62,955 bases of DNA from a virus (taxonomy: Duplodnaviria > Caudoviricetes). Position numbers and translations under genes: made by a program. The DNA lies in IMG/VR virus record IMGVR_UViG_3300037511_000526, positions 1 to 62,955 of that record; one strand, written 5' to 3'. Positions 1,292 to 62,955 of the stretch are shown in pieces. Under the pieces are notes generated by a model. That model ran no database searches. It was not told where the DNA came from and saw only the letters and a list, made by a program, of their open reading frames with translations. The stretch's first letter is position 1; each line of letters begins with the position of its first letter.

Positions 1292-1293
1292 GC

Positions 1294-3349: not shown

Positions 3350-3352
3350 ACT

Positions 3353-6648: not shown

Positions 6649-7158
6649 ATGAGACTAATATTACCCCTGCTCCTGCTTGTATGCTCAAACGCTTTTTCAC
6701 AGAAATTGACTATCAACAAAAGGATCGATAAAATGGATGGCGCTGAATACTATTCGGCATCCAAGTCATTAAAACTCTCCAGTCCTTCAAAGAAATGGTT
6801 TGTAATTGAACCCATCATTAAAAAGAATGATGAAAATAATATTGAATGTACTGGACTATTTATAAAATTCTCAGGTATAGGGGCTTGCAATGAAAATGAC
6901 GAATTAGATTTCTTATTTGAAGATGGCAGCAAACTGAAAATAAAGGCTTGGAATCAATTTGCATGTAAGAATAATTCAGGATTTTTCATCGACTCTACAG
7001 ATGCATTGGGGGGTTGTCTTGCATCGATTAAATTATTGAATAAACCGATAAAAAGTATTAGATTTTCGAACGGTAAAACTTATGACAATCTAACAGTAGA
7101 CCTTCTATTAAAAGACAGAAACTATTTTGTTGAATTGAACGCAGCATTAAATAATTAA
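6649..7158 (+). CDS. Secreted hypothetical protein
   Basis: Signal peptide MRLILPLLLLVCSNAFS followed by Gln. Confidence 0.7.
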   Translation: MRLILPLLLLVCSNAFSQKLTINKRIDKMDGAEYYSASKSLKLSSPSKKWFVIEPIIKKNDENNIECTGLFIKFSGIGACNENDELDFLFEDGSKLKIKAWNQFACKNNSGFFIDSTDALGGCLASIKLLNKPIKSIRFSNGKTYDNLTVDLLLKDRNYFVELNAALNN

Positions 7159-20406: not shown

Positions 20407-20408
20407 CG

Positions 20409-21005: not shown

Positions 21006-21051
21006 GGACTAAAGTTACAGGAATTTCAGAATAGATTGAAAGAAATGAAGA

Positions 21052-21498: not shown

Positions 21499-21507
21499 AA
21501 GTATAGT

Positions 21508-44217: not shown

Positions 44218-44767
44218 CAGATCCCATAATGTATTGTCGCTTTGAAAGCGTTAAAAAAAATAGGCGCAGCTTTCGCTGCAGCGATCCGGGACTGGCATCC
44301 CTTGCAACCACAACTACATGCCGCGCCTTATCGGCGCACCGTAGTTACCAGGTTGCGTAAAATTGCCAGTTTTGATCGCTTGGTAAACTAAAGTCCAATA
44401 TTTTTACCGGTTATCCGGTCGTGAAGTCCCGCAAAAATACTTGATTGAGATTAATCCTAAGGAGAATAATTATGGCACAGCATGGAATTTCGGTTTTACA
44501 AAGTTAAGGTTGTTGGCTAGTGCTAATCATTGCCTATATCAGCTTTTAAAGGGCGGGATAAGCAATATAAGTAATGAACAAATTAATAACAATTAGAATT
44601 TTTGTGTTATACATGGAACTGCGTAGCAAAACCGGTATAGCTAAAATAAATACCCAATCTATTTATTCGGTATTAATTATATGTGTTGACTATAGTCAAT
44701 ATACCAATGAGCCCTGTATTGCGCTTGGATAAAATTTCGTTTATTCAGAATGTTAATATCAACCAAA

Positions 44768-45208
44768 ATGAAATATCTTTTTTTAAGTTTAGTTATTGTT
44801 ACAAATCTCTCTTACGCGCAAGAACCCCCTAAAAAGGCCAATAAAATAATAGTATTAACTAAGGACAGCGCTAATACTCTAATAAGTAAAATTGCCATTG
44901 AATTGTTCAATCGGGGGTTTACAATAGATACAAAAGATGAGGCATTGAAACAGATTACAACAAAAGAGCGGCCGAACAAAAATAGTATGACATTAATAAA
45001 GATTAGGGCGATGGTGAATGATACAGCTATTATTTTCACTAGTCAAATGGCACTGGCAAACGAATATACATTAATGGGTGTTACCATGAAGCCCACTTTC
45101 GATCCGGTGACTTATTCGGGAATGAAAAAAGGTTATATGATGGAAGCGTGGCGCGAACTTGATGCTATTGCTCACGAATTTGGCGATAAGATAACTTACA
45201 GCAAGTAA
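44768..45208 (+). CDS. Secreted protein, lysogenic conversion candidate
   Basis: Signal peptide MKYLFLSLVIVTNLSYA-Q; between repressor and integrase. Confidence 0.7.
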   Translation: MKYLFLSLVIVTNLSYAQEPPKKANKIIVLTKDSANTLISKIAIELFNRGFTIDTKDEALKQITTKERPNKNSMTLIKIRAMVNDTAIIFTSQMALANEYTLMGVTMKPTFDPVTYSGMKKGYMMEAWRELDAIAHEFGDKITYSK

Positions 45209-49297: not shown

Positions 49298-49855
49298 CTA
49301 TGATTCATTAACCGATAGCTGACCTGTAGCAGCAAGCTCTATACTTCTGACATTCTCGGGTTGCGCAATCTTCCACATGGGGCGTCTTGCTGCGTACAAT
49401 CTAGTTTTTGCTATCCTAGTAATGGAAACGCTGTCAGATTGATTTCCACCCAGGATATGATACGAAGCCTTGTCTTCGCCAATATAAAGTGCGACATGGC
49501 CCGCTTTCCCCCCGGTAGATGTTTTGCGCACGAAGACGAGTACATCTCCAAGCATCGGTTGATCTGCCGCTTGACCGAAAGTGCCCCAGTTCAGGGCCCA
49601 CAATGGATCTTTCACGACCTCTTTGCCTGCCCGTTTCGCGACAATAGCCATAAACAAACCGCACCATGGTATCTCATCTGCAACGTACACTTTAGCGACA
49701 TCTTCGCCGATCTCTTCTGCCCATGCGGTGATATCCGGATTGTTATCTTTACCGCGACGCTCTAATGTGCCGTAATGTTTTAACGCTTCAAGGAGCATTT
49801 TCGGACCTGGTTCATTTAATAACCAAGCGTATTGTTTTGGTAATTCTTTATTCAT
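49298..49855 (-). CDS. Endolysin, NlpC/P60-CHAP-type (TIGR02594-like)
   Basis: DEIPWCG, GHV, LGGNQSD motifs. Confidence 0.85.
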   Translation of the reverse strand: MNKELPKQYAWLLNEPGPKMLLEALKHYGTLERRGKDNNPDITAWAEEIGEDVAKVYVADEIPWCGLFMAIVAKRAGKEVVKDPLWALNWGTFGQAADQPMLGDVLVFVRKTSTGGKAGHVALYIGEDKASYHILGGNQSDSVSITRIAKTRLYAARRPMWKIAQPENVRSIELAATGQLSVNES

Positions 49856-50349
49856 CCTTTCTCAAGTTTTATATGCATATCCCTCGGCGAAACCTGATTA
49901 CCCCCAAAATAAGTTCCCAACCGGTACTGCAGCCTGCCCTTATTACCATGCAGTACATCGGCCTCCCCGATGGCATTCCCATCATTATCGTCAAGGGTGA
50001 AGAAATAATGTCCATGAGCGGCAATAAGACCAATACGGTACGTCTCACCGATGCGGCAATAGCCGATATGCTCGGTCACACGGCGACCGTTAACGTAACA
50101 ATAGGCCAGTAGCTCTATGTTATCGCTGCCGATCCAATACCGCCAACCAAATCGGGCAGAATGCTTGTGGTGACCCGGCAGGTAACCAATGCCGACCAGC
50201 TTATTGATATCGAGTTGATCGGGCACGCCGAGGTCGTACCGGCAGTCGTCAGTGAAAGTTACTTTCCACTCGAAGACAGTGCGGCGCCACCATAAGCCTA
50301 TACGCACCGGCCGGGCGCGGTGCTTGCCGTGAGGGATGCGGAAGATCAT
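49852..50349 (-). CDS. Beta-sandwich hypothetical protein
   Basis: DINKL.G..HH.HSARFGWR..YFGGNQ. Confidence 0.65.
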   Translation of the reverse strand: MIFRIPHGKHRARPVRIGLWWRRTVFEWKVTFTDDCRYDLGVPDQLDINKLVGIGYLPGHHKHSARFGWRYWIGSDNIELLAYCYVNGRRVTEHIGYCRIGETYRIGLIAAHGHYFFTLDDNDGNAIGEADVLHGNKGRLQYRLGTYFGGNQVSPRDMHIKLEKG

Positions 50350-50645
50350 AGATGTATCCCTTCATTCAATCCGGCAGACCAGGCGGCGGCCCATATGGAA
50401 GACAGCAGGGCTAACCCTATAATCACGTACCGCTTCCAATCTTTGTTTGGATCGTCGGCATATTTGTAGGCGCTGTTCGCCTGATACGCAAAGAGAATGA
50501 GCAGCGCAATATCAACGATGGCGAATAACCAGTTGCCCAGGTTGATGAAATAATTATGCGCCCATGCAAGATGAAATAGTAGAACTGTTCCTATGCAGAA
50601 CAGAATCATATTACGCACTAATGATTTGTCGCTTTTGTTTGGCAT
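50346..50645 (-). CDS. Three-TM membrane protein in the lysis region
   Basis: Three hydrophobic helices. Confidence 0.65.
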   Translation of the reverse strand: MPNKSDKSLVRNMILFCIGTVLLFHLAWAHNYFINLGNWLFAIVDIALLILFAYQANSAYKYADDPNKDWKRYVIIGLALLSSIWAAAWSAGLNEGIHL

Positions 50646-50659
50646 ATGAAAATTGTTTA

Positions 50660-50866
50660 TTAATAATCCTTTACTTTAATATTTATATCAGCAATTGAAC
50701 CCGTAACAGTATGCCTGACATCGTAAACTGTTCCGACCACTTTCCCACGTGACGTCTCATAAAAGACGGTTTCTCCTACACGGGGAAGCGGCATGTTTTT
50801 CGGATAGTCTAATTTTTTGGCAACGTTGTCTTGCTCAATTGTGATGAATACTTTCGATGCTTTCAT
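50660..50866 (-). CDS. Hypothetical protein
   Basis: LPRVGETV. Confidence 0.55.
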   Translation of the reverse strand: MKASKVFITIEQDNVAKKLDYPKNMPLPRVGETVFYETSRGKVVGTVYDVRHTVTGSIADINIKVKDY

Positions 50867-50868
50867 AG

Positions 50869-51612
50869 TTATCTTTTAAAAGATATAAGAAGTTTCGTCC
50901 CCAACCCCGCATACCACACATTCCCAACCGTGGCGCCTGTGATCTCGTATATCTTATTACCTCGTGTCTTCAGTGATATATTCACCTGGCCACCAGCCAG
51001 CGGATTAATTTGATTTCCAAAAACTCCAATACCGGCATATACCTGGTTGCGCGGCTTCTGGTTGACCTTAGCTTGTAGTTGCGTCATACAATCATCTAAC
51101 TGGTTCGAGAATTTCCGGTTAAATTCTTTCTGCGCATTGATAGTGCTGTCGCGTATGGCTATCTCATATAGCATCAGTTCGTTTACTTTTGCGCCATCTT
51201 CCTCATACTGATCGATCTTTTCCTGCTGCAAGCGCGCCTGGTCCTTCAGGCTATCGCAACCGGAAATATACTGCGGGCTGACAGGGATAAATGTGCTGTC
51301 GCGTGGTTCGAGCTTGGCACCTTCAACCTTTGCGATCAGTCGGTTAATAGTGATCTGTGAGGCGGTTAATCTTTGCTGCGATTGATCGAATTTTTCTTTC
51401 AGTACGGCCCGCGCTGCAGCAGCACTATCTTGCTGCACTTGTCGGTTCCAAAGTAGCTGCTGATAATATTTTGCCGTGTCCTTGATCCGTTGCTGTAGCG
51501 CTTCCTCCTCGGCTTTCGTGCTATCAGTCTTCACGGCCTTGCCGCATAATTGTATCAATACGATAAAGCATAGTGCGATCACGAACAATATCCATCCTGC
51601 GTTTACTTTCAT
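50869..51612 (-). CDS. Putative spanin-like protein
   Basis: N-terminal TM with Cys, long coiled coil, amphipathic beta C-terminus; lysis region. Confidence 0.55.
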   Translation of the reverse strand: MKVNAGWILFVIALCFIVLIQLCGKAVKTDSTKAEEEALQQRIKDTAKYYQQLLWNRQVQQDSAAAARAVLKEKFDQSQQRLTASQITINRLIAKVEGAKLEPRDSTFIPVSPQYISGCDSLKDQARLQQEKIDQYEEDGAKVNELMLYEIAIRDSTINAQKEFNRKFSNQLDDCMTQLQAKVNQKPRNQVYAGIGVFGNQINPLAGGQVNISLKTRGNKIYEITGATVGNVWYAGLGTKLLISFKR

Positions 51613-51663
51613 AACGTGTGAATAAATCAACCCCGACCTACGGAGCCAGGGTTGACATGTGAT

Positions 51664-51990
51664 TTAAAGACCAGATGTTGGCTCGGTCGGTGGCGGTGTA
51701 GGTTCGCCTGTTTCCGGATTCTTAGCCGCGATAGCCTTTAGTTGATCCGAAGTCGTTCTCAACTCAGCAACTACTGAATCGGCCTCCTCAGCCGTAAGAC
51801 CGCCAGAAATCTGGCCGGCCAGCCTGTCCAGGTCAGCGGCAATGTTGTTAGTTGATTCATTAATCACTGACAGTTCTGCCTTGATGGCATCTAATTTTTC
51901 TCCCATTTTTTCAATTTTTGAATTAATAGATTTGATTTCGGTAAACAGTTTATCATCATGGTGATGATGTAGGTGGATATGTATTTCCAT
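51664..51990 (-). CDS. Coiled-coil protein with His-rich N-terminus
   Basis: MEIHIHLHHHHDD; Pro-rich tail. Confidence 0.65.
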   Translation of the reverse strand: MEIHIHLHHHHDDKLFTEIKSINSKIEKMGEKLDAIKAELSVINESTNNIAADLDRLAGQISGGLTAEEADSVVAELRTTSDQLKAIAAKNPETGEPTPPPTEPTSGL

Positions 51991-51994
51991 CACT

Positions 51995-52381
51995 CTAAAT
52001 TTGAGTTTTTGGTGCCTCATTCACATTATCAGCAATATTGGTTTTGGTATCAATGACATTGTTAATCTTTTTATTAACTACACCAAATAGTCTAGATGCG
52101 ATATCACTGCCAGTATAGCCGATAAAAGCAAACCCAATCTTAACATAGTCGATTATTGTGGGCTTCCAATTCAGTATATTGTCAAGAAAAAGCAGAAACA
52201 TAATAATTGTTAGAAGCGATGCGGTGATCGACAGCCAATCATTGCTGAAGTATTGCCGCACCTTGAACTCTACATTAGCCGCGCGAGCTTTATCCTGCAG
52301 AGACTTCATTTTCAGGATGGTCTGCAACGCCATACCTACTACGGCGATCGCGAAACATTCGGTATACAACTGTATTGTCAT
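51995..52381 (-). CDS. Putative holin
   Basis: Three TM helices, charged C-tail, lysis context. Confidence 0.6.
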   Translation of the reverse strand: MTIQLYTECFAIAVVGMALQTILKMKSLQDKARAANVEFKVRQYFSNDWLSITASLLTIIMFLLFLDNILNWKPTIIDYVKIGFAFIGYTGSDIASRLFGVVNKKINNVIDTKTNIADNVNEAPKTQI

Positions 52382-52385
52382 ATGT

Positions 52386-52670
52386 CTACTGTTTAAATGG
52401 AAAATTATTTAACATCTTTTCAATCAGTTTTTCATATTTGGATTGCACACTCAGAATTTCTTCAGATAGTTCACTATGATCTTTGCGAAGTTCTTCGATC
52501 TCCTTCTTTACAATAGCATGCTCTTCTTTCAATTTATGCAGTGCTGTCTTTCCGATTGATCGCTCTTTGAAAAACACCTGCACCCCTTGCACTAATGCAA
52601 ATGCACTGATACCCCACATGCCGAGTTGTACAACTCCATTTATTATTTTGTCGATTTGTTCAGGTTTCAA
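52386..52670 (-). CDS. TM plus coiled-coil protein (holin/antiholin-like)
   Basis: One TM followed by heptad repeats. Confidence 0.55.
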   Translation of the reverse strand: MKPEQIDKIINGVVQLGMWGISAFALVQGVQVFFKERSIGKTALHKLKEEHAIVKKEIEELRKDHSELSEEILSVQSKYEKLIEKMLNNFPFKQ

Positions 52671-53157
52671 ATCTTTTCTTTTTAGTTTTCAATTCTTCGT
52701 ATACAGATTTAAACTCTTCGTGGATGTCGATTTGCTTCTTTATAAGACCTATCGCCTGCTGCATGAAGTCGATCAGTTGATTAGTATAATCTCCCATGCC
52801 CTTGTACACATATCTGAATCCGTCATTATTAACAAAATCGGATATTACTTTAGGATCATCCTGACCGGATATCATTATGATCTTACACCACGGGTTACGA
52901 CTTAACACTACCTTCATAACATCTATACCATTAAGTGGGCCGGGAAGATAATAATCGATTATACATATGTGTACCCGGTCATTTAACGACTTAACAAATT
53001 CCGCACTATTCTTAAAGAACATATAATCAACAAACCCATTCAACTTAAAAAGCTGATCCAGTAGATGTATTATGTCTTCATCATCTTCAAGAACATAAGT
53101 CAGGATGTTCAGTTGCTGCTGGTATATTTTTTCTTCGATCATAATTAGTGCCCTCAT
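52660..53157 (-). CDS. Stand-alone response-regulator receiver (CheY-like)
   Basis: YVLEDD, IIDYYLPG.LNG (phosphoacceptor Asp), IIMISG, YVYK. Confidence 0.88.
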   Translation of the reverse strand: MRALIMIEEKIYQQQLNILTYVLEDDEDIIHLLDQLFKLNGFVDYMFFKNSAEFVKSLNDRVHICIIDYYLPGPLNGIDVMKVVLSRNPWCKIIMISGQDDPKVISDFVNNDGFRYVYKGMGDYTNQLIDFMQQAIGLIKKQIDIHEEFKSVYEELKTKKKRFET

Positions 53158-53208
53158 TTAATTACTACAAACCGGGCATGAAAATTATATAGGATATAGG
53201 CTTATTCT

Positions 53209-54996
53209 TTACTTACGAATAATAACAAAAACATCCCCTACTTCATAAACAAAGAATGTTACAGTTGCTTGTCCAGTCGCGCCTTTATCATCCGTTGCCG
53301 ATAGCCGGTACGTGAACTCACCAGGTGCAGCGAATGTAACTTCCGTGATGCCATCGGTGACATTCACCACACTGTCGCCAGCCGGGCCGGAAACCTTTTC
53401 CCATCCTGCACTTACTATTTTTCCATCGGGATCAGTCGCCTTCCATTTCAACAAGATCGATTTATCGATCGCTACCTTGTTGCACCATGCCTCCACGACC
53501 GGCGGTTTGTTAATGATCTCAACAGCGACAACTACTGTATCGGCCATTGTGCCGTTGTTAATGTCGGTTGCCAGTAATTGGAATGAATACGTTCCATTGT
53601 TCAAAGCTGTGATCTCTGTAATCGCTGAATCCGGCGACAAAATGCCCGAGGCGGTGCCGGACAATTGCCGCCATTTATAAGTAGTAATACCAAATGAAAA
53701 GTTCTTGCCGCGCGTTGGCGTGGCAACCCCTGTTAAAATGGTTGATGTGGAGCCTACCTTCTGATCAGGGCCTGCCGAAACGATGCCTGGTATAAATAAT
53801 CCTGGTGATGGTACTGTAACACTAAAGGGGTCCACCTGCGTAGGGACGGTCACATCAAGGGCGTTCGGGTAATTTGATTCGTTTGATACAGCCAGTCCTT
53901 CCTTTGTATTTGCTGGATTGGTGGAGTATAGAACGGCCGATTTGTTTCTGCCCCAACTGTACAGGTTGCCGCTAATGTCCTGGGCATATTTGTAGAAGGC
54001 ATAATACCCGCCGCCAAACACCCTTCTGAACTTCACATCGGACCGAATTTGAACAGGCTTTGCAACAAAAGCGGTTTGTTGATAACCTGGTTGGTTTGCC
54101 ATAATCCAGTTCCAGATATACCTGGTGCCCTTGTATTCCACTTTATCTACGAGCTGCCAGCCGTTGCCGACCTCACCTTGTGCATTGTCCCCATATCCGA
54201 ACAAACGGCCTTCAGCGGTAATGAAATGAATGGTATTGTCATTGACAGCGATGTCCAGCGGTGGCGCTGTAATTCCCCAGTAAGGCGCCAAAGCAACGTA
54301 ATTGGTGATCGTGCCAACAGTATTGTTTAGGTATTTCGCGTTGCCCCATCCGAACGGCATCCCGCCAATGGTGGCAATGTAGAAGTTATTTACAGAGGCG
54401 TAGACTTTCTCGACAGGTCCTGGCAGCGCCTTCTTTATCCATGTCGTTGAATTGTCATTCACCGTGTATACTGTTCCGTCTTCAGCCACAGCTACCAACA
54501 CACCATTGCCATTTGAGCCGCCTTTAACGACTGATTTGAATTTTACAGCAGGCTGGCCTGGGATCTTTGTCCACTTATCGAGCACCTTTTGCGGGTCGGT
54601 CCCAAACCATTTTTGAGTGTTGTAGTTCATGGCACAAACAGTACCATCATCGCGCACGGCGATATAGGTTTGCAGGTGACATTCTATTGATTTGGCTTTA
54701 AAAGGCTTGCCGTCGGCATCGTATTGAAGGAACTTTAGGCTTGTAGATTTCGGACCATGAGCGAACACATTACCAGCGGTGTCCCGTAATAATATATCAT
54801 ACAGACCACCATTTCCTTCAGCGAATTTTCCCGTTATCGGCGAAACCTTCAGTCCCACCGGAGTGATCCATACTGCGGTATGCGCCGAACCATCTTTTTT
54901 GATAAAGTCAACGCTGTACTCCGCGGGAATAACCTCGCTGACCTGCGCAAAGGACGATATTGATAGGAACAATAATATCGTGGTGATTATTCTCAT
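53209..54996 (-). CDS. Exported RCC1-repeat beta-propeller protein with two PKD-like domains
   Basis: Signal peptide SFA-Q; GRLFGYGDNAQGEVGNG, GNLYSWGRN; AGPDQ..YKWRQ.SG, DPDG.I...W..VSGP..ATDDKGA. Confidence 0.8.
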   Translation of the reverse strand: MRIITTILLFLSISSFAQVSEVIPAEYSVDFIKKDGSAHTAVWITPVGLKVSPITGKFAEGNGGLYDILLRDTAGNVFAHGPKSTSLKFLQYDADGKPFKAKSIECHLQTYIAVRDDGTVCAMNYNTQKWFGTDPQKVLDKWTKIPGQPAVKFKSVVKGGSNGNGVLVAVAEDGTVYTVNDNSTTWIKKALPGPVEKVYASVNNFYIATIGGMPFGWGNAKYLNNTVGTITNYVALAPYWGITAPPLDIAVNDNTIHFITAEGRLFGYGDNAQGEVGNGWQLVDKVEYKGTRYIWNWIMANQPGYQQTAFVAKPVQIRSDVKFRRVFGGGYYAFYKYAQDISGNLYSWGRNKSAVLYSTNPANTKEGLAVSNESNYPNALDVTVPTQVDPFSVTVPSPGLFIPGIVSAGPDQKVGSTSTILTGVATPTRGKNFSFGITTYKWRQLSGTASGILSPDSAITEITALNNGTYSFQLLATDINNGTMADTVVVAVEIINKPPVVEAWCNKVAIDKSILLKWKATDPDGKIVSAGWEKVSGPAGDSVVNVTDGITEVTFAAPGEFTYRLSATDDKGATGQATVTFFVYEVGDVFVIIRK

Positions 54997-57900
54997 GGAG
55001 GTGTTATTTTGTATTGACCACTGATGGTCAGTGTATGATTATTGACAGATTGCGAAATGAATTGAATAAATCCGACGTTATTTGTTGCATCTGCCAGCGC
55101 AGTGCCGGAAACGGCCGCAGTACCCGTAGTCCTACCCGAGACCGATCCTATCAATTCATGAGTAGCGGAAAAATCGCTTGCTACGGGTAATGAGAATCTA
55201 AGTTCTGTTAATGTGGTGGTTGCCGTAGGATCTACTACAATTTCGATAGCATATGTTACAATATCGCCGATCCTGGTATATGTTGCACTATCGATGGTAT
55301 TGCCATCAACATTCGTAACGTTTGTGATTGTTGGCAGCCAGCGGCCCGATGTAATTGTTAAGCCCACACTTGCATTTGACCATGATGGCGCGCTACTTGT
55401 TCCATTGGTAGTTAATACCTGGCCGGCGGTTCCGGCTGCTAACCTCGTTAACAAACCGCTTGCATTTCTGTAATAGATATCATAGGCCGCATCGCTTCCG
55501 AGACTTAAGCTTACGCTTCCGTTTTGATAAAGGCCACCAGTATTTTGAAGGGTAAATGCGCCCTGATCAGTAGTAGACCCTATCTGCAATTCGCCACCGG
55601 GGTTCCAACGGGCCGTTTCAGTGAACCCCGAACCACGTAATATCTTGATTGGCCCGGATGCATTATCTGCTACCAGGGCAAGACCCGCACTTCCTGATCC
55701 TCGGATATATGCAATACCAGCAACAAGGCCACCTGTAGCATTGGTAGCACTCGAATATATTCCTTGCTGCAGCAGGTCACCAACATCATTGTTCAGGTTA
55801 ACAGTCGTCTGTGCCGACGTGCCTGCGGTTCCGTTTTTCAATGATAAATACGTATTGCTGTTTTGGTCCTTTTGAATCCACACAGGGCCAGCTACTTCCA
55901 AGGTCCCCAGTCCGAGATAAGATGACTGTCCGACCAGCAGTTTGCCTGTAGGTATTTTCACGAATCCATCTGATCGAGCGATTAATGTAGCGCCAGTCAG
56001 GTTATCGTCAAACGTCATATTACCTCCGATACCAACATGTGAGCTCACGGATATAGTAAGAGGGCTGGTTAAATTAGGAACCGCGTCCGCGCCAGCAGAA
56101 CCGGTACCAAATGCACGAAACGCCAGTTGCCCATTATAATAATGCATTGCTGACGCATATCCTGTACTCCTATATCTGAATGTAGACCCGTCGTTATATA
56201 CATTTAGCCCTATAAATCCATTATCGACTGCAGATGGCTGTAATTCAAAACTTCCCGCTCTCAATTTCGGTGCAGAACTACTATTTCCAGTAATAGTGAT
56301 TGCATTTGCCGTCGTTGCTCCCCTGGTTGTTACATCATCTAAATTATCGGTGCTGGCACCGGCAGTAGATGCTGTTGCTGCGATTTTCTGAGGGCTGATC
56401 TCATCGAGATAGGCCAAAAACATATTGTATTGCCCCTTCGAGGTTGGATGTATACCGTCGCTCTGCTGCTGGGTTGGGTCGGTTGGATCAAAGTATCGGT
56501 TGATTGCTGGAAAATAGATTGGGTAACCAGGAAACTTCGACTGCAGTTCGGCCTTGCAAATTGCAGTAGCCGTATCAAGAGAACCTGCCGTTGCGCCGTC
56601 GGGAGGCGCCACAAATGCATATCCTGTTGCGTTCATATGCGGGAATGCAGGAAGAAAAGCCGGTTGTCGCACTGCAACATTAGTACTCATCAATACTCCA
56701 ACACCATCAATGCCGCCCATTACACCGCCATCCAGGAAAGTAAGCACAATTCGGTGCAGTGTATCTCGAAGGCCTGTAATCACGATTGCATCGTTGGTAA
56801 TGCCCTGCCTAATGAATCCAGCCTCTACCGTGCTCCAGCACTTCCCTCGCGGATCATATGTACCAAGAGTAACACCATCTACGGCATACTGTATGCGGCT
56901 TAGTACAGTGTAGCTATTGTCGCAGGCCCAGGTCTGAATGTATAATGCAGAGCCTTCCAGGCTGTCAATGGTAATTGTCTCATTGGCCGTGATACTGGTT
57001 TTCTTCCACCAGTTCGCGCCACCCCAGCCGGTGACATTATGCCGTACCCAATATGTATGCGATGACCAATCCAGCAGACTGTCTTCTGAAGCAGCGGTTG
57101 CACCGCTCGTTGACGCGCTGAAAGTATATTTCGGATTTGCCACACCACCGATACCGAAGGGTGGTTCGAATGTCTTTGCAAATTGGTTCGCCATGATACT
57201 GCGATAGCCCGCCTTTGCCGTTTCAATGCGCCGGGTGCTATCGGTTCGAGCTCTGAAGTTATTGAATCCTACGCCACAGATAAGCGCCGTGGTCGGTGTC
57301 GTCGTAGTATTGGAATACAGTTGCTTCAGTTGATCCCGAATTCTATTTCCACTCACTGCATAGTTAGTGAATGTCACTCCGAAGTATGACCCAAAAAACT
57401 TTGGAACTGTCCTGATCGTAGTAGGCGGAGCATCGGCATTATAGCCAGCGTAATAGCTGTCACCGAGGGCAATGAGCCCATTTGTAGGAGGGAAAGCCAT
57501 TTTATCCTGCAATCCGCTGGCGCGAAATGCGGCAGCCGTATCCCTTAGTCTCTGTATGGAAGACACCCAATTAAGTGTATCAGCGCCCATCAAGATCTTA
57601 TTGGTATTGATCGAGAATGTTATTGTAGCATCGTGATCAAGTCGCTTTATTGCCGAGCCATTCCACAACGTATCACCAGAACCAGAAGCGTTTACCACAG
57701 TAGCCGAACCGCCCGAGGATGGCGCCTTCATCATCGGATTGGTTTGTGTTACGGGATCGTACGGACCTACTACCCATGCGCTATCTGCTGCTGCGACTTT
57801 TGGGGATCTGACCCTAAGCGAGTCTGCCTTAATATCAATTTTGTATGGTGTTATTTCAACAACCGATGTCTTTCCCGCCGTCGTATTTCCGGCGGACAAA

Positions 57901-58514
57901 CGCGTGAATGGCGTATCTACATAAGCATTAGTATAAGCTAAAGCGGACAATGTTGTACTGCTTTTAGAATGCAAAGATTGCATTTGTAAACCACCAGCAT
58001 TGAATAATAAAATATTAAGAACAGAATCTACCGTATTTGCACTATTTCTTAAACCATAAGAGAAAAACGGCCCTGAAGCAGGGAATTGATTTAAAGTTTG
58101 TAGTCTTGTTCGCGTCTTTCTTCCTGTAATAATTTCGTCATCTTCAACTTGTAATAACCGAAAAGAACCAACGGAGTCAAATATCAGTTGTTTATGGTCA
58201 GCATTTTGAATGTAGTTACCGGTAAACTTATTTGAGGAGTTAGTGATGTTCTTTCCGGCACCGATAATTTTTAGTGTATCATTGCCGACTATGAAGGTGC
58301 TGTCATTCAATATCCTGGACTTTTTAAAAGTCGTCAACCCACCGCCAATATTAGTAAGCAGTCCTAAACTGTCTTTTGTTTTATTGATAATATACAATTC
58401 ACAGGTACCATTCTGCTTCATAATTCTTACTGTATCAAAACGCAAGTAGCCGGTTGTTTGGCCGGCTACTTTCAAAGCTGCAAAAAGCAGCACGAACATC
58501 ATTATCCTTTTCAT
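54993..58514 (-). CDS. Tail fibre/spike-like protein with signal peptide and SGNH esterase domain
   Basis: Signal peptide VAG-Q; LGDS, GFNN, DGIHP; fibre motifs LDDVTTRG.TT and GTAGQVLTTNG..APSW; follows the tail tube gene. Confidence 0.75.
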   Translation of the reverse strand: MKRIMMFVLLFAALKVAGQTTGYLRFDTVRIMKQNGTCELYIINKTKDSLGLLTNIGGGLTTFKKSRILNDSTFIVGNDTLKIIGAGKNITNSSNKFTGNYIQNADHKQLIFDSVGSFRLLQVEDDEIITGRKTRTRLQTLNQFPASGPFFSYGLRNSANTVDSVLNILLFNAGGLQMQSLHSKSSTTLSALAYTNAYVDTPFTRLSAGNTTAGKTSVVEITPYKIDIKADSLRVRSPKVAAADSAWVVGPYDPVTQTNPMMKAPSSGGSATVVNASGSGDTLWNGSAIKRLDHDATITFSINTNKILMGADTLNWVSSIQRLRDTAAAFRASGLQDKMAFPPTNGLIALGDSYYAGYNADAPPTTIRTVPKFFGSYFGVTFTNYAVSGNRIRDQLKQLYSNTTTTPTTALICGVGFNNFRARTDSTRRIETAKAGYRSIMANQFAKTFEPPFGIGGVANPKYTFSASTSGATAASEDSLLDWSSHTYWVRHNVTGWGGANWWKKTSITANETITIDSLEGSALYIQTWACDNSYTVLSRIQYAVDGVTLGTYDPRGKCWSTVEAGFIRQGITNDAIVITGLRDTLHRIVLTFLDGGVMGGIDGVGVLMSTNVAVRQPAFLPAFPHMNATGYAFVAPPDGATAGSLDTATAICKAELQSKFPGYPIYFPAINRYFDPTDPTQQQSDGIHPTSKGQYNMFLAYLDEISPQKIAATASTAGASTDNLDDVTTRGATTANAITITGNSSSAPKLRAGSFELQPSAVDNGFIGLNVYNDGSTFRYRSTGYASAMHYYNGQLAFRAFGTGSAGADAVPNLTSPLTISVSSHVGIGGNMTFDDNLTGATLIARSDGFVKIPTGKLLVGQSSYLGLGTLEVAGPVWIQKDQNSNTYLSLKNGTAGTSAQTTVNLNNDVGDLLQQGIYSSATNATGGLVAGIAYIRGSGSAGLALVADNASGPIKILRGSGFTETARWNPGGELQIGSTTDQGAFTLQNTGGLYQNGSVSLSLGSDAAYDIYYRNASGLLTRLAAGTAGQVLTTNGTSSAPSWSNASVGLTITSGRWLPTITNVTNVDGNTIDSATYTRIGDIVTYAIEIVVDPTATTTLTELRFSLPVASDFSATHELIGSVSGRTTGTAAVSGTALADATNNVGFIQFISQSVNNHTLTISGQYKITPP

Positions 58515-58543
58515 ATAAATATCAGGATGTCATTTAAAATTAA

Positions 58544-59089
58544 TTATGGAGCCACAGTAAAGCATTCAAATATCCCGGCAGGCTCATCATAAGGACATGG
58601 TACATCCTTGTCTGCCCATTTGACCAGAACATCCCATACCACATCGCTATTCAAGTCTTCTGTTACCGGATTTTTGGGTATCACGACCGCAGGGTTGTTC
58701 GTGATATGAATTTGTGTTTCCGTTTTGAAGGCATACCGGTATTCCTTGCTGTTTTTTAACAGGTTGTAGAAATCGCAATTGCTTTTGTAGTTCGGGTCTT
58801 TGAAATTGCTGGTAAAATTGTATCCGATAAAACTTTCGGATTGGCGGCCGTAACCGGCGCCGAGTACTTCCGAACCACCATCGAATGAGCCAAGTACACC
58901 AGGAATGATGATGATATCCCTGGAATTTATTCCAGACTGCCATTCTGTTGGACTTGATGGATCGGTGAATTCGAATGAATTCTTTATGAATGCCACATCA
59001 CCTACCCGGCCTTTTTCTCGGGCTTCGCAGGGGTCGCAAATATGATCAGGTATTTCTACTGCGCAATCAGAGGGATAATAAACTGCCAT
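58544..59089 (-). CDS. Major tail tube protein (putative)
   Basis: 181 aa acidic beta-rich protein following the neck genes. Confidence 0.6.
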   Translation of the reverse strand: MAVYYPSDCAVEIPDHICDPCEAREKGRVGDVAFIKNSFEFTDPSSPTEWQSGINSRDIIIIPGVLGSFDGGSEVLGAGYGRQSESFIGYNFTSNFKDPNYKSNCDFYNLLKNSKEYRYAFKTETQIHITNNPAVVIPKNPVTEDLNSDVVWDVLVKWADKDVPCPYDEPAGIFECFTVAP

Positions 59090-59099
59090 AACTTAAAAT

Positions 59100-59633
59100 T
59101 TATGGGCACTTTTTAAAGCACCCCTTTGAAAAAGTTGTTTCGATTGAATAATTTACTTTGAAAAAAAACTGATCCTCTTTCAATTTATACGTGTCACTAG
59201 CAACATATTCTTGCCGGTAAATAGACAGGCTATCGAATACTCCGCCAATGAATGTAATTACCACAGATTTGTAAGGATATATGTTTATCCTTTCGGGTGT
59301 ATTGGCTTGGACAAATAACAAAAACTCATCCGGGTACATGCATGCTTTGGGACGGTCAAGGAAAACAACCATGGAAAGCTGATAAGTATTTACATTGTCA
59401 CCCAGACTGCGTCCTGTTCCTGTACCGGGTCTTATATTACTACCGAGTGAATTCAACCGATGATAAATTCGAACTGGATACATATCATCTATGCCGACAT
59501 ACTTTTCATTTATGACTGGTATGGTAACATTTTCCCGCAAAAGCAATTCAGCTATTCCATTAGCTTCACTTCCGGCAGGTAACCAGGTTAAAGAACTATT
59601 TATTTCCAGTACTATGTCTCTAACTGAGTGCAT
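59100..59633 (-). CDS. Tail terminator / completion protein (putative)
   Basis: Synteny between neck and tube genes. Confidence 0.5.
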   Translation of the reverse strand: MHSVRDIVLEINSSLTWLPAGSEANGIAELLLRENVTIPVINEKYVGIDDMYPVRIYHRLNSLGSNIRPGTGTGRSLGDNVNTYQLSMVVFLDRPKACMYPDEFLLFVQANTPERINIYPYKSVVITFIGGVFDSLSIYRQEYVASDTYKLKEDQFFFKVNYSIETTFSKGCFKKCP

Positions 59634-60066
59634 CTGAAATAAGTTCATTTATTCGATCAACCGCATATTGCTGTTCGGATTTTGACATCGTGAATATCTT
59701 CTTCCCTTTGTTTTCTTCTACCCACCGGGCTTTCTGAAGATTGAATGGATTCAGAAATCCAATTCCATAACCGTTCTGTGTTGCTATAACAGCCCAGTTA
59801 TTTTCCAGTTGCCTCGTAAGACTTACAATTATTTTCGAACTGGCATCGCGCTTATATTTTTTTTGGCGCAATTTCAAGTACGAATTATTGTAAGTTCCGA
59901 TCTGGGCGTTGTCAGATGCTTCGCCTTTCTGATGAATGCGTTCGGTCATTAATGGAATTACTTCAGTTGCCACTGGGCGAAGGAGATATTCTTTATTCTT
60001 CAACACTTCCAACTGTTTCTTGATCCTGCCGGCAACTACCTTGATATTTGATTGAATTCGAATCAT
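59620..60066 (-). CDS. Neck / virion morphogenesis protein (putative)
   Basis: Basic protein, RIHQKG..IGTY..Y...R..VSLT.QL. Confidence 0.55.
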   Translation of the reverse strand: MIRIQSNIKVVAGRIKKQLEVLKNKEYLLRPVATEVIPLMTERIHQKGEASDNAQIGTYNNSYLKLRQKKYKRDASSKIIVSLTRQLENNWAVIATQNGYGIGFLNPFNLQKARWVEENKGKKIFTMSKSEQQYAVDRINELISDALS

Positions 60067-60575
60067 GGTAGCCAAGTTACTGTTTCAGGGTTACCACTAC
60101 ATTGCATGCAACATTCGGAGGTATCCATTAAAAGAACTGCCTGTTTAAGTGCCTTCTCATATTCCAACTGATAGAAATCTTTAAGCTCTGCAGCCTGCTT
60201 CGCGTCAATGGTCGTAAACCGGTTGAGCCTGGTTGATGTTATTCTGAAGATCATCAGCCATACGCCTAATGAATATTCCCATGCCTGAACAAGTGTTTCT
60301 GCATTATCACAGATTAGTGCATCATAGTCACATCCACGGTCCAATTTGAAACACTTATTGAGTTCGGCCATTACATCGATTCGAAATTGAGCTACAGCGC
60401 TTTTTTGAACGTCATCCCATACACCTAGATATGTAACCTGCTCACTGTCGGCAATCTTATCAATGCTTTCAATGCTGATTCCGGGCAGTGAATTCAGATA
60501 TAATCCACTTCCGGGTTGTTCGTAAATGCCTTCGCAATAGCTGAGGCCAACAAAATCGATGAAACATGAAAGCAT
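60063..60575 (-). CDS. Head-tail adaptor (putative)
   Basis: Helical protein directly after the capsid gene. Confidence 0.55.
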   Translation of the reverse strand: MLSCFIDFVGLSYCEGIYEQPGSGLYLNSLPGISIESIDKIADSEQVTYLGVWDDVQKSAVAQFRIDVMAELNKCFKLDRGCDYDALICDNAETLVQAWEYSLGVWLMIFRITSTRLNRFTTIDAKQAAELKDFYQLEYEKALKQAVLLMDTSECCMQCSGNPETVTWLP

Positions 60576-60581
60576 ATAGTG

Positions 60582-60602
60582 AAAGAGCGGATCGCTCCGC
60601 TC
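60582..60602 (-). terminator. Hairpin after the major capsid gene
   Basis: GAGCGGA-GCGA-TCCGCTC-TTT. Confidence 0.6.
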
Positions 60603-60623
60603 CTATTTTACTAACCCAGGAAA

Positions 60624-61757
60624 TTAAACGGGATACGCATATGCCGGCCCGCTGTACGCGTCGTTGCCAATGAAGTACTTCAGCGTGCCATTGGTGCCTT
60701 CCAGTTCATCACCGGTACTGTATGCGTTATCTGGTTGAACCCACAAAGCATAATCTTTGCTGATGATACCTTGCCATCCGCGATCAACAAATACACCCTC
60801 CGAAACCTCGGTACGGCAATCGTAATACTTCAACTGCAGGTCCATTACCAGATCGCTCAGACAATCGTCGGCGCAACCAAATTCTCTAACTGGCAGGGGC
60901 AGGGTAGTGAAAATGCTTCCACCTGGTTTCTCGCCGGCAAAAGATCCGACAAACTTATTACGGCCGATGAACTTCACGCTACCAGGCGCGAACACTCCGA
61001 TGGCGTTATTACCCCATATGCTTTGCGTGTCTTTGTCGAAGAAGAAATTCGGGAGGCCAGTTTTGCTCATATCGATACCGGCATTCGAGCAGCATGCTAG
61101 AGCCTGAGCCTTTTCGTAGGCAGCAAACAGGCCACCACCAACGATGCAAGGATCGCCGCAAAATTCATTTTCCTGCAGGTCTTGCATCATATCGATGATA
61201 CCATTATCAAGGATTACTTTGTTGCCGTCCTGGTTGATATTGATCACCTTGCCGGAAGCAGATCCGTTCGCCACATTTACGCCGAATTCAGTCGCCATGG
61301 AAGTCACCAGCGTTTGGTTGATCTTCCTTAACACAACATTGGCCCCTTCAACAACCAGGTCGTACACTTCCTGCATGGCCTGTGTGGCCGGATTGCCGAG
61401 GCTTACCATGCGGCTCGCATCCTGACAGTAACGGCTGATCTGATCGTCGGAAATGTGAAATGAATACTGGGCATGCGATAATGCAGGTACGTTCCATTCC
61501 AGGTAACCGGGGGTTGCGTTTATCGCGCAATCGTCGGTCGTTTGCACGTCAGCTAGTGTTGGCCTGCGACGATATTTAACTACCATAGAGGTTTGGTGTC
61601 CACCCTGATAGGCGTCATTCAATGGAGATACAGTGCTGTTCGCGCAACAAAATGTCATTGCCAAAAAACCCGCAACATGCATTTTACTACCGGGCGCATT
61701 GTTTCCGGCAATCTCTTTGATATGCTTGAGCAGGTACGGGCAGAAGCCAGTAGCCAT
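60624..61757 (-). CDS. Major capsid protein (start MATGFC)
   Basis: 377 aa, after scaffold and before hairpin and adaptor genes. Confidence 0.8.
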   Translation of the reverse strand: MATGFCPYLLKHIKEIAGNNAPGSKMHVAGFLAMTFCCANSTVSPLNDAYQGGHQTSMVVKYRRRPTLADVQTTDDCAINATPGYLEWNVPALSHAQYSFHISDDQISRYCQDASRMVSLGNPATQAMQEVYDLVVEGANVVLRKINQTLVTSMATEFGVNVANGSASGKVININQDGNKVILDNGIIDMMQDLQENEFCGDPCIVGGGLFAAYEKAQALACCSNAGIDMSKTGLPNFFFDKDTQSIWGNNAIGVFAPGSVKFIGRNKFVGSFAGEKPGGSIFTTLPLPVREFGCADDCLSDLVMDLQLKYYDCRTEVSEGVFVDRGWQGIISKDYALWVQPDNAYSTGDELEGTNGTLKYFIGNDAYSGPAYAYPV

Positions 61758-61788
61758 ATAACAATAAATTAAATGATGAGTAAATGAA

Positions 61789-62730
61789 TTACATCCCGTT
61801 CGTCTTTTCCAGAGCGGCCAGCGCCTCATCTGCTAAAGATGAAAGAGCATGATTAACGGTTTTTCCATCGCCATTTCCGTTTTGGTTATAGCGCTGTTGA
61901 TTGCCGTTGTTGTTTACGTGTGTTCTGGCACCATTGCCATTACCATTTTGATTCTGGTTTTGGTTCTGGTCTGTAACTTTGAGAATTTTGTCGCGGGACA
62001 TTATTTTATCGAGATAGCTCTTAGGAGTGAGCAAACGGTTGTCCTCGCCGAAGAAATTTGAACCGTCTTTTTTTCGTAAAGCTAATTGGCCGGAATCATC
62101 CACGGTAAATTCCGCAGCATCCGCATTGAGTGATTTATTGATAATGGCTTTCAAGGTGATGTCTTTCACCTCTCCGTCCAGTTCATCATAGATTGTTTTG
62201 TAACCGCCCAGGATATTACGCAGGGCATAGGACATGTCTTTGTCTTTAAGTTTGCCCTCGTATTCTGCCCGTATGCCCGCCTCTTTATCTTTCTCGGCAC
62301 GTAATTGCGCATTCAGGTCATTGATCTGCTGCTGCAGTGTGTCTTTTTCACCTTTGCCGCTGTTTGCCTTTTGTTCTTCAAGCGCCTTGATTTTAGCAGC
62401 CAACAATACAGCCTTTTTGGTGGAACTTTTCTCTGCCAGGATCTCAGCCTTTATATCGTCAGGTAATTTGTGATCCTCAATAAACCTAGCAATTTCTTTG
62501 TCCAGTCCATCGTATGCCTGACTGAAGTAACGTCCCTTGATTACAGGGTGATTATTCATAGCAGCATCAATAGAAAGCAACCCATTGTCAATGCCGGTAA
62601 TAAGTTCGTCGGGTATATTTATATTGGCCAGCTCAGGAGCGGCCAGCAATGGTTTAATGGTTTCGTCATCGATCTTAACTCCGGCTTTAATGGCTAATTC
62701 TTTCAAAAAATCTGCTGCTGTTTTTGGCAT
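61789..62730 (-). CDS. Capsid scaffolding protein
   Basis: Coiled coil, N/Q/G low-complexity linker, short C-terminal helix; upstream of MCP. Confidence 0.75.
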   Translation of the reverse strand: MPKTAADFLKELAIKAGVKIDDETIKPLLAAPELANINIPDELITGIDNGLLSIDAAMNNHPVIKGRYFSQAYDGLDKEIARFIEDHKLPDDIKAEILAEKSSTKKAVLLAAKIKALEEQKANSGKGEKDTLQQQINDLNAQLRAEKDKEAGIRAEYEGKLKDKDMSYALRNILGGYKTIYDELDGEVKDITLKAIINKSLNADAAEFTVDDSGQLALRKKDGSNFFGEDNRLLTPKSYLDKIMSRDKILKVTDQNQNQNQNGNGNGARTHVNNNGNQQRYNQNGNGDGKTVNHALSSLADEALAALEKTNGM

Positions 62731-62736
62731 AAAAAA

Positions 62737-62808
62737 TTATCTCCTTGGTTTTGTTGGCTTGGGTCTTCCGCTTCCGCCGCAACTCCGGCAGGATAAAATA
62801 TTAGGCAT
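62737..62808 (-). CDS. 23-aa basic CxxC micropeptide
   Basis: MPNILSCRSCGGSGRPKPTKPRR; start overlaps the upstream gene's end and stop lies 6 nt before the scaffold ATG. Confidence 0.5.
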   Translation of the reverse strand: MPNILSCRSCGGSGRPKPTKPRR

Positions 62809-62955
62809 TTGCATTGTTGAAAGATTTTGGTTTCGGTCCGGGCTTCTTCTTTTCCACCGTATAATTCGTTACCACCGGTTGTACTTCATCATTGTGCACG
62901 TCCTCAATGATCTTTCGAAGGTGAACCGGCAGACTCCGGTTCTGCTCCATTAAAT
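62773..62955 (+). repeat. Terminal direct repeat / circular overlap, copy 2
   Basis: Matches 1-183 with one mismatch. Confidence 0.95.

Follow-up and report, generated by a model that had tools for sequence, protein, structure and literature searches.

Does a tailed phage send its fibre out of the cytoplasm, to be glycosylated by the host, before the fibre ever meets a virion? This question is raised by two adjacent genes of the IMG/VR virus record IMGVR_UViG_3300037511_000526, which was analysed here over its full length of 62,955 bp (the window) and is a complete record with an estimated completeness of 99%. A sequence-only reading of this DNA had proposed that both genes, lying right after the tail tube, encode tail-fibre-like proteins that open with a signal peptide followed by Gln and are loaded with the O-glycosylation sequons of Bacteroidota, and that these proteins are exported, glycosylated in the periplasm and joined to the virion at lysis, or else displayed on the surface of the lysogen. 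For the longer product, of 1173 amino acids (aa), export and periplasmic O-glycosylation are well supported by our comparison, because the signal peptide is conserved, the sequon excess tracks it and the residue preferences agree. The fold matches, the trimer model and a conserved N-terminal end joined to an exchanged distal part support its identification as the exchangeable receptor-binding fibre of the phage. The shorter product, of 595 aa, is read as an optional accessory binder. The window belongs to a temperate tailed phage, in which the small and large terminase subunits and the portal were found. Its host is assigned, on indirect grounds only, to Bacteroidota and possibly to Chitinophagaceae, since the sole organism names among the homologues are Chitinophagaceae and metagenome-assembled genomes (MAGs) of Puia. 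The features on which the question turns are the following:

54993..58514, minus strand: gene of the 1173-aa fibre-like esterase, predicted to be exported (P0001), from its open reading frame (ORF), its translation and Pfam PF00657, with 17 sequons against 5.5 expected.
58461..58514, minus strand: signal peptide of this protein, residues 1-18 (MKRIMMFVLLFAALKVAG), with a predicted signal peptidase I (SPI) cut before Gln19, from the sequence and the homologues.
58245..58460, minus strand: conserved N-module, residues 19 to about 90, the proposed docking domain, from homologue conservation, with four sequons at D27, D48, D71 and D79.
53209..54996, minus strand: gene of the 595-aa protein, predicted to be exported (P0002), with an RCC1-like propeller and two PKD domains, from its ORF and Pfam.
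54946..54996, minus strand: signal peptide of the 595-aa protein, residues 1-17, from the sequence.

The layout claimed for the two N-termini was confirmed in both. The 1173-aa protein begins with MKRIMMFVLLFAALKVAG followed by Q, divided into MKR, IMMFVLLFAAL and KVAG, and the 595-aa protein with MRIITTILLFLSISSFA followed by Q, divided into MR, IITTILLFLSISS and FA; in both, a basic n-region precedes a hydrophobic core that is free of charges and has the length sought (about 10 residues or more), positions -3 and -1 are small, and +1 is Gln. A word-indexed search returned 70 homologues of the 1173-aa protein, the window's own included, and a HMMER scan of 1.84 billion representative proteins returned 3922 matches at E<=1e-3 (524 at 1e-10 and 106 at 1e-30); the homologue analysis covers the 168 listed of these 3922 matches, which are homologous in any module. 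Signal peptides were called by a crude rule and by eye. By the crude rule, 147 of the 168 homologues have a signal peptide plus Gln, a class to which all N-module proteins were assigned even if gene callers had begun them at an internal Met. Gln occupies +1 in 92 of the 92 proteins that carry the N-module, with a small residue at -1 in 91 of them, and in the distant N-modules (e.g., Q-S-T-L-P-L-R-A-D-T-V) the Gln and the n/h/c layout are retained in 17 of 17, on a quite different hydrophobic core. The same Gln follows the signal peptide in all 14 signal-peptide forms of the 595-aa family and in seven non-homologous signal-peptide proteins of these phages. A Gln at +1, the Q-rule, has been described as specific to Bacteroidetes (PMC5837995, PMC10653852).

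An extracytoplasmic location is predicted from the signal peptide, and we consider export of the 1173-aa protein through Sec and SPI very probable, with cleavage predicted before the Gln. Three alternatives were rejected. A start at Met32, which would skip the signal peptide, does not hold, since several homologues have Tyr, Phe or Thr in place of this Met and the signal-peptide codons evolve as coding sequence, their synonymous and conservative changes indicating that they are translated. A lipoprotein route was discarded for both proteins, neither of which has a Cys near its cleavage site, and so was the type IX secretion system (T9SS), as no C-terminal sorting domain (PF18962 or TIGR04183) was found in either protein with Pfam and NCBIfam at E<=0.01. 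Since both the sorting domain and the lipobox are absent, export should end in the periplasm, and from there the two proteins would reach the outside only by lysis. Two further small proteins of the window have a signal peptide followed by Gln and no sequon enrichment, one at the end of the glycosyltransferase island (6649..7158, plus strand, AFS before Q) and one beside the integrase/repressor region (44750..45208, plus strand, SYA before Q).

A different explanation of these N-termini is that nothing is exported: the hydrophobic segment would be a structural or transient element, the fibre would be assembled in the cytoplasm, and the D-S/T-hydrophobic triplets would be a habit of beta-rich fibre folds. 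The sequon counts bear directly on it. Sequons were counted by script as D-[ST]-[AILVMT], that is, with the narrower third-position set A/I/L/V/M/T of earlier work, and were compared with composition-preserving shuffles in the 69 ORFs of at least 100 aa. The counts given by the sequence-only reading turned out to be exact, with 17, 4 and 6 sequons in the 1173-aa, 595-aa and spanin-like proteins and 2, 2, 1 and 0 in the controls (525-aa replication protein, portal, 991-aa tape-measure-protein-like (TMP-like) protein and 401-aa capsid-like protein). The length of about 247 aa given for the spanin-like protein was corrected to 253 aa. This protein belongs to the lysis cassette and serves as a control from the periplasmic side:

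50869..51630, minus strand: 253-aa spanin-like protein of the lysis cassette, with a membrane anchor at its N-terminus and a coiled coil, used as the window's own positive control for an excess of sequons in the periplasm.

The 17 sequons of the 1173-aa protein exceed an expectation of 5.49, a count reached by 0 of 5000 shuffles, and 11 of them fall within residues 27-325. By segment, residues 1-340 hold 11 against 1.67 expected (0 of 50,000 shuffles), residues 340-720 hold 5 against 1.49 (p=0.012) and residues 720-1173 hold 1 against 2.27. The spanin-like protein has 6 against 0.44 (0 of 5000 shuffles), and these two are the only proteins that stand out among the 69 ORFs, the next best having p=0.064; the Poisson tails for the excess in the window were 6e-5, 1.5e-6 and 7e-6. 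The sequon claim thus survived the shuffle comparison for these two, and the count of the 595-aa protein taken alone was not significant (4 against 1.92, p=0.12). The 78 ORFs of the window of at least 70 aa in which a crude detector flagged no N-terminal hydrophobic segment together contain 31 sequons against 34.3 expected. The spanin-like analogues of three relatives, which are not homologous, contain 4, 3 and 3 against 0.84, 0.69 and 0.90, so that the four pooled proteins, whose topology faces the periplasm, have 16 against 2.9. In the cultured Bacteroides phage B40-8 and Flavobacterium phage lotta8-1, 13 of 13 structural and tail-fibre proteins are unenriched and none has a signal peptide.

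The excess claimed for the window was recovered in the homologues. The 147 with a signal peptide plus Gln have 1644 sequons against 616 (2.67x), and the 58 of this class that lack the N-module have 640 against 258, with 53 of 58 above expectation; six with a signal peptide and no Gln have 37 against 20. The 15 signal-less homologues have 56 against 44 (1.27x), and 2 of these 15 resemble N-truncated signal-peptide forms. When only the sequence past the N-module was considered, 69 family members showed 557 sequons against 283, with 64 of 69 above expectation. Control motifs in the same 69 members gave, with h for the hydrophobic position, 0.76 for E-[ST]-h, 1.12 for N-[ST]-h, 1.04 for the reversed motif, 1.24 for D-[AG]-h, 1.34 for D-h-[ST] and 0.57 for D-[ST]-non-h. 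When position 1 of X-[ST]-[AILVMT] was varied, just Asp was enriched (2.64x, or 2.17x without the signal peptide and the N-module), the other 19 residues lying between 0.69 and 1.20. At position 3 of D-[ST]-X, the residues L, C, V, T, I, A and M were enriched, S weakly so, and the other 12 were depleted, with G and F unenriched. This fingerprint at positions 1 and 3 is essentially the O-glycosylation motif of Bacteroidota as given in PMC8698959, D-(S/T)-(A/I/L/V/M/T/S/C/G/F).

The family of the 595-aa protein offers the closest comparison between exported and non-exported forms. Of its 25 members, the window's included, 14 have a signal peptide plus Gln and 11 begin at the mature sequence (P0176, P0182, P0185, P0187 and P0189-P0195). 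Over the same aligned part, the signal-peptide forms hold 61 sequons against 28.0 (2.2x) and the signal-less forms 19 against 21.7 (0.88x). In four alignment columns, D-S/T-h is present in 9/14, 11/14, 5/14 and 7/14 of the former against 1/11, 1/11, 0/11 and 1/11 of the latter, and the signal-less forms retain there the Asp and the hydrophobic residue around a middle G, A, N, Q or similar. Both forms alike end in a YIIIRK-like tail that is conserved. These data support that the sequon excess tracks the signal peptide in both protein families.

Cytoplasmic assembly without export has general knowledge on its side, as the known fibres of tailed phages all assemble in the cytoplasm, and the signal peptides were judged here by rule and eye. 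Moreover, the N-module sequons at D27, D48, D71 and D79 are kept in 17, 15, 12 and 15 of the 17 distant modules, and several N-module sequons, nearly invariant, are placed by the trimer model at the interface between chains, as residues with a structural role would be. It is nevertheless an improbable explanation in our view, since it does not account for a Gln that stays while the hydrophobic core drifts, for the enrichment of Asp alone at position 1 with essentially the published residues at position 3, for the fall from 2.2-2.7x in signal-peptide forms to 1.27x and 0.88x in signal-less fibre homologues and 595-aa orthologues, for the unenriched cytoplasmic fibres of the two cultured Bacteroidota phages, or for a reversed motif at 1.04x. 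We therefore consider O-glycosylation of the 1173-aa protein likely, the glycan itself being deduced from its sequons.

Whether this exported protein is a fibre is a question of its architecture and of its exchange among relatives, for which the following features were needed:

57495..58244, minus strand: sequon-rich shaft, residues about 91-340, predicted as an intertwined homotrimer together with the N-module.
56379..57485, minus strand: SGNH carbohydrate-esterase, residues 344-712, with a CBM35-like beta-sandwich inserted at about 445-610, from the SGNH blocks, the model and fold matches.
55005..55364, minus strand: C-terminal head domain, residues 1051-1170, sigmaC-like, from VIA, Foldseek and a predicted local distance difference test (pLDDT) score of about 90 or more.
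58544..59089, minus strand: 181-aa protein that resembles tail tubes, encoded immediately upstream of the fibre gene, from 91-94% identity in two relatives, the model and Foldseek.

The N-module is the sole part common to most of the 70 homologues, covering 6-14% of the query at 65-90% identity, and in the 92 homologues that carry it, it lies invariably at the extreme N-terminus. Behind it the distal domains change across the family (SGNH, BNR sialidase, pectate lyase, SASA, metallophosphatase and others). The relatives for which DNA was available are two viral contigs and seven metagenome loci, just two of these seven being long. In the two complete relatives (63,153 and 60,958 bp) just the first 87 residues of the fibre are kept, at 83-86% identity, and the rest is replaced, whereas their structural genes are 46-94% identical to those of the window (tube-like 91-94%, capsid-like 89-92%). 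The order of tube-like gene, fibre gene and lysis cassette is the same in four of four related phages with DNA, and the fibre gene starts 29 bp behind the tube-like gene. Ten homologues without the N-module were looked up, and eight are on phage-sized contigs of 45.6-72.2 kb and two on short contigs. The 1173-aa protein thus combines an anchor-like conserved N-terminal end with an exchangeable distal part inside the structural gene block, as a fibre does.

The predicted structure leads in the same direction. Pfam PF00657 (GDSL lipase) matched the protein with 33.2 bits against a cut-off of 23.6, and PF13472 with 31.3, slightly below its cut-off of 32.9; all four SGNH blocks are present (GDS at 351-353, SGNR at 388-391, GFNN at 416-419 and DGIH at 686-689). 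An AlphaFold2 monomer model built from 64 aligned sequences had a mean pLDDT of 68.8 and was confident over residues 340-710 and about 1060-1170, the esterase region being mostly above 90, and unreliable over residues 1-340, with values of 35-55. In VIA, the esterase matched 4rsh_A with Z 14.2 and a root-mean-square deviation (rmsd) of 2.6 Å over 171 aligned residues, the inserted sandwich matched CBM35 modules with Z about 9, and among solved phage proteins the esterase matched 9d84_A (Z 12.3) and 9lna_A (Z 11.1). The head matched 2bt8, the head by which the avian reovirus fibre sigmaC binds its receptor, with Z 11.8 and rmsd 2.2 Å over 114 residues, and with a Foldseek probability of 1.00. 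The top Foldseek rows are viral haemagglutinin-esterases (E 4e-6 to 3e-4), and among predicted viral structures the model matches phage minor tail proteins, tail fibres and hydrolases. The N-module and the shaft matched nothing in the PHROGs, Pfam and NCBIfam profiles or in a sequence search of the PDB, and the best ESM Atlas hits to residues 1-340 (0.84 for viral clusters and 0.82 for a T4 gp9/10-N cluster) are both under the significance level and serve as leads only. Prediction as a trimer also favoured a fibre: three copies of residues 19-340 reached a median ipSAE of 0.69 (runs 0.65-0.84) against 0.00 for the best control, on a scale whose mark was calibrated with two copies and other alignments; in that calibration, 20 of 30 solved pairs attained the mark, as did 1 of 23 single chains. 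The modelled chains intertwine from the mature N-terminus on, with a partner pLDDT of at least 62 and at least 62% of the contacts common between runs. This supports, short of demonstrating, a homotrimer.

All this evidence concerns what the protein is, and a second explanation accepts its export and O-glycosylation and denies that it is part of the virion. The trimeric esterase would accumulate in the periplasm and be a soluble receptor-destroying or matrix-stripping enzyme, released at lysis or in vesicles, that keeps the progeny off debris or clears polysaccharide, and the N-module, instead of attaching to the tail, would have as its partner something conserved in the envelope or the phage. 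The signal-peptide and sequon evidence speaks for this explanation too, no mechanism is known by which proteins of the periplasm are added to particles made in the cytoplasm, and the nearest fold analogues are receptor-destroying haemagglutinin-esterases. The adjacent slot, with its changing non-homologous signal-peptide proteins, resembles a secreted-cargo cassette, and a 595-aa family with and without signal peptide is as expected for proteins that lysis frees anyway. In prophages of P. gingivalis, five Q-rule signal-peptide genes of unassigned function have been interpreted as modifiers of the host envelope (Matrishin et al., 2023, PMC10367356). On the other hand, an N-module conserved like the virion proteins, together with the swapping of all distal sequence, is the hallmark of virion-docked fibres; an intertwined trimeric shaft and a sigmaC-like head are fibre parts and atypical for free enzymes; only 29 bp separate the gene from the tube-like gene before it; and the signal-less homologues of the fibre modules resemble ordinary phage tail proteins. 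We regard the free enzyme as a real possibility, with a chance well under even.

The reading that we favour is that of an exported, glycosylated trimer that docks by its N-module on finished particles at lysis. In this scheme, the 1173-aa fibre would be made late from the structural operon with its Sec signal peptide, SPI would cut before Gln19, and the Gln would be cyclised as in the Q-rule proteins of the host. The general periplasmic O-glycosylation system of the host would modify the many D-(S/T)-hydrophobic sites of the fibre, which would trimerise in the periplasm. Once holin, endolysin and spanin open the envelope, the fibre would meet the finished particles and dock, and the 595-aa protein would be an optional accessory taking the same export route in the window phage. 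Four elements are shown by comparison: the signal peptide, a selection on sequons that goes with it, the architecture of a fibre and the exchange of its modules. Docking on the virion, deduced from the conserved N-module, has in our judgement almost an even chance, and the scheme as a whole somewhat less than that. Its broadest form, in which an uncultured lineage of Bacteroidota phages builds pyroglutamate-capped, O-glycosylated fibres outside the cytoplasm and snaps them onto tails at lysis, with a glycan maybe re-tailored by the phage's own island of glycosyltransferases, is doubtful.

Several considerations weigh against the favoured reading. The 1173-aa protein is as yet only a candidate virion component, a periplasmic fibre would have just the short time of lysis to find particles, and we know of no tailed phage that joins a periplasmic fibre to its particles; likewise, no tailed phage docking periplasmic fibres at lysis was found in the open-access full-text literature. 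The signal-less 389-aa fibronectin type III (fn3) and 732-aa proteins of the structural block are other candidate receptor binders. The crude signal-peptide rule misflagged the capsid-like protein and the integrase, and the nucleotide-level constraint of a hairpin over the cleavage-site codons, described below, contributes to the invariance around that site. As the members of each class are related, the pooled sequon counts are not independent events, and the split of the 595-aa family into signal-peptide and signal-less forms may be one of two clades. Since this family occurs with or without a signal peptide, export is not obligatory for its function, and other large signal-peptide proteins found in the same slot of relatives (665, 535 and 1037 aa) show no sequon enrichment. 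Lastly, cultured relatives gave 0 matches in 50,697 phage records (megablast with 50000..62955; tblastn with the N-module, the esterase region and the capsid-like protein).

The 595-aa gene overlaps the fibre gene by 4 bp on the same minus strand, and the proposal of two tail-fibre-like proteins held for the 1173-aa protein, by its folds, trimer model and modularity, and did not for this one. About 24 close homologues (43-58% identity) were found, most of them on phage-sized contigs, one of which also encodes an N-module fibre. As the protein is missing from the two complete, otherwise syntenic relatives and 11 of the 24 close homologues are signal-less, it is not a fixed second tail fibre. 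In the same slot, other relatives have unrelated signal-peptide proteins of 665, 117, 535 and 1037 aa. Between the genes for the exported proteins and the holin-like genes lies a stand-alone response-regulator receiver gene (PF00072, E 3e-12; 52660..53157, minus strand), which is not in the two complete relatives.

Accessory genes of this kind suggest a further explanation, that of lysogenic-conversion genes (morons), expressed from the prophage, whose products would lie on or under the host surface, alter its polysaccharides and block superinfection. The phage is temperate, as marked by a cI-like helix-turn-helix protein and by an integrase in which a catalytic domain accompanies a SAM-like one and an arm-binding one of Bacteroidota type (Arm-DNA-bind_5); signal-peptide morons beside tail genes are known, lambda lom being an example; the 595-aa and response-regulator genes are accessory; and the distant bacterial homologues of the 595-aa protein are T9SS cargo with PF18962. 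However, neither protein has the T9SS C-terminal domain or a lipobox that would predict a path to the surface, no TAnnTTTG motif (the Bacteroidota -7 motif) lies directly upstream on the coding strand, a gap of 29 bp follows the tube-like gene in a late operon, and the fibre gene is fixed in the structural block in five of five relatives. Among 185,579 species genomes, the scan gave at least one match, a 6,245-bp contig (L002) binned in a 'Candidatus Saccharibacteria' MAG, which is probably a stray phage contig that was misbinned. We judge these to be unlikely morons, and display on the lysogen surface, the other fate proposed by the sequence-only reading, is disfavoured on the same grounds. 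Besides a 1141-aa N-module fibre, the L002 contig encodes a 186-aa lipoprotein-like protein with six sequons.

In comparison with known systems, several parts of the favoured reading have precedents. SGNH esterase domains are already known on phage fibres and tailspikes, such as Gp48/49 of Shigella phage B2 (9d84) and the tail fibre Gp09 of SFP21A (9lna), which share with the window protein a trimeric and modular build, an N-terminal anchor, an exchangeable enzyme and the SGNH core. As far as these accounts go, the known ones are signal-less and assembled in the cytoplasm, whereas in the window family 92 of 92 members begin with a Q-rule signal peptide and sequons are 2 to 2.7 times as frequent as expected. 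The haemagglutinin-esterases of influenza C/D viruses, toroviruses and coronaviruses likewise place an SGNH esterase with an inserted lectin-like domain on an attachment protein (VIA Z 9.0-9.4), and these proteins travel along the secretory pathway of the host and are given its glycans. The viruses concerned are enveloped and eukaryotic, and their proteins have no detectable sequence relation (9-12% identity) and differ by an rmsd of 7-11 Å over the whole unit, so that the likeness is taken as convergent architecture and not as family membership.

The Q-rule genes of P. gingivalis prophages are, similarly, Bacteroidota phage proteins predicted to be cut by SPI before Gln; they are not modular or fibre-like, and the string 'glycosylat' occurs 0 times in the main text of PMC10367356. 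The known substrates of the general O-glycosylation system of Bacteroidota are extracytoplasmic proteins with D-(S/T)-(A/I/L/V/M/T...) sites and, by the account in PMC8698959, residue preferences that match those found here; they are host proteins, no phage-encoded substrate having been found in open-access full text. The same literature yielded no fibre-like phage proteins with signal peptides and no phage proteins shaped by the Bacteroidota O-glycosylation motif. In mycobacteriophages, as far as described, glycans are borne by structural proteins and glycosyltransferase genes adjoin structural genes. Their glycosyltransferases act in the cytoplasm on capsid and tail proteins, unlike the window sites, which correspond to the host's periplasmic sequon on signal-peptide proteins. 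The coat proteins pIII and pVIII of filamentous phages are virion proteins with signal peptides, assembled outside the cytoplasm by extrusion through the membrane and with no lysis, in another virus realm. To our knowledge, no tailed phage has signal-peptide virion proteins assembled outside the cytoplasm, and such a periplasmic assembly step, if real, would be new in kind.

The host range of a phage depends on its tail fibres, which by the textbook fold and attach in the cytoplasm; those of this family bear the export signal of the host and show selection for its glycosylation motif. If they are indeed exported and glycosylated, the phage particles of a major bacterial phylum would carry host-type glycans, with a bearing on their stability and on host and immune recognition, virion assembly would gain an extracytoplasmic step tied to lysis, and phages engineered or produced in the wrong host would have unmodified, perhaps inactive fibres. 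In the broadest form of the reading, a tailed phage would also make virus-directed use of a bacterial general glycosylation system. Even as secreted enzymes, these proteins would provide the first comparative evidence that we have found of phage genes shaped by the Bacteroidota O-glycosylation system, and the contrast of signal-peptide and signal-less forms is a ready natural experiment.

Among the neighbouring genes, the position right after the tail tube claimed for the fibre gene was confirmed as far as adjacency is concerned, and the identity of the tube is supported at fold level only. The model of the 181-aa protein has a pLDDT of 84.9, and tube-like proteins fill almost all of the top 50 Foldseek rows, with weak E-values (2e-3 to 5e-2, the best being 2.4e-3) and TM-scores of 0.3-0.5; they include the tubes of phages T1 and Sf11, lambda gpV and Hcp-like proteins, a fold also used by distal-tail and terminator proteins. 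In its 65 homologues Cys9, Cys18, Cys21 and Cys176 are invariant and His16 nearly so, a set that resembles a metal-binding cluster, which tail-tube proteins do not usually have. No match was found for the 181-, 182-, 151-, 170- and 401-aa proteins in PHROGs, Pfam, NCBIfam or PDB sequence searches. The spanin-like protein fits by its sequence and its place in the lysis cassette, with no family match in Pfam, PHROGs or NCBIfam and no outer-membrane partner identified. The end of this cassette and the glycosyltransferase island are as follows:

49298..49855, minus strand: endolysin-like protein at the end of the lysis cassette, from TIGR02594 and weak NlpC/P60 and CHAP matches.
596..6605, plus strand: glycosyl-/methyltransferase island with GT2, GT11, FkbM, GT47-like and GT7-like genes, from Pfam.

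The island encodes a fucosyltransferase-like GT11 protein and two methyltransferases (one of them FkbM), is transcribed away from the head genes and is found at the same place in five of five related phages, among them G001, G002, L008 and L013, at 46-83% identity. Export signals are absent from all of its proteins. Its role might be to re-tailor a glycan bound to lipid, to add sugars to virion proteins within the cytoplasm or to change the polysaccharides of the host. That it tailors the glycan of the exported proteins is speculation: its fucosyl-, galactosyl- and methyl-transferases could act on the lipid-linked precursor, and the resulting glycan coat could protect the fibre or bait glycan-binding surface proteins of the host. 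An HNH/NUMOD4 homing-endonuclease-like gene interrupts the island (1294..2052, plus strand) and is missing at this place in G001.

A terminator scan also revealed a nucleotide-level feature within the fibre gene:

58444..58471, minus strand: hairpin with a perfect stem of 10 bp and a loop of 8 nt, GCGTTTTGAT coming next, over codons 15-24 of the fibre gene, which are those of the predicted signal-peptidase site.

Its folding z-score is -3.4. In six relatives, one and the same codon is used at 9 of the 14 positions from 15 to 28 and at 4 of 40 positions beyond that stretch (Fisher p=1.7e-4), and the sole change in the stem turns a G-C into a G-U pair. The hairpin could act as an attenuator, a translational pause or a recombination site. 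No Rfam family matched over the hairpin or elsewhere in the window, which has no tRNA genes; TAnnTTTG is not enriched in it (44 observed against 62 expected), and scans of the window for sigma-70-type promoters and terminators were close to the shuffled expectation.

The terminase has distant matches only in phage records, at up to 46% identity. The order of the structural genes is odd: from 7348 to 23341 on the minus strand come the terminase, small ORFs, the 991-aa TMP-like protein with hydrophobic segments and proteins of 732, 251, 389 and 294 aa, followed by the portal, and the head, neck and tube-like genes come after the glycosyltransferase island. Among the structural proteins, divergence is greatest in the 389-aa fn3 protein, with 46-57% identity in the relatives, and this protein could be another receptor binder. 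In the relative G001, a 742-aa protein encoded after the endolysin (L005 16928..19156, plus strand) has no counterpart in the window; it is signal-less, has 0 sequons against 2.3 expected, and may be a second, cytoplasmic fibre or spike.

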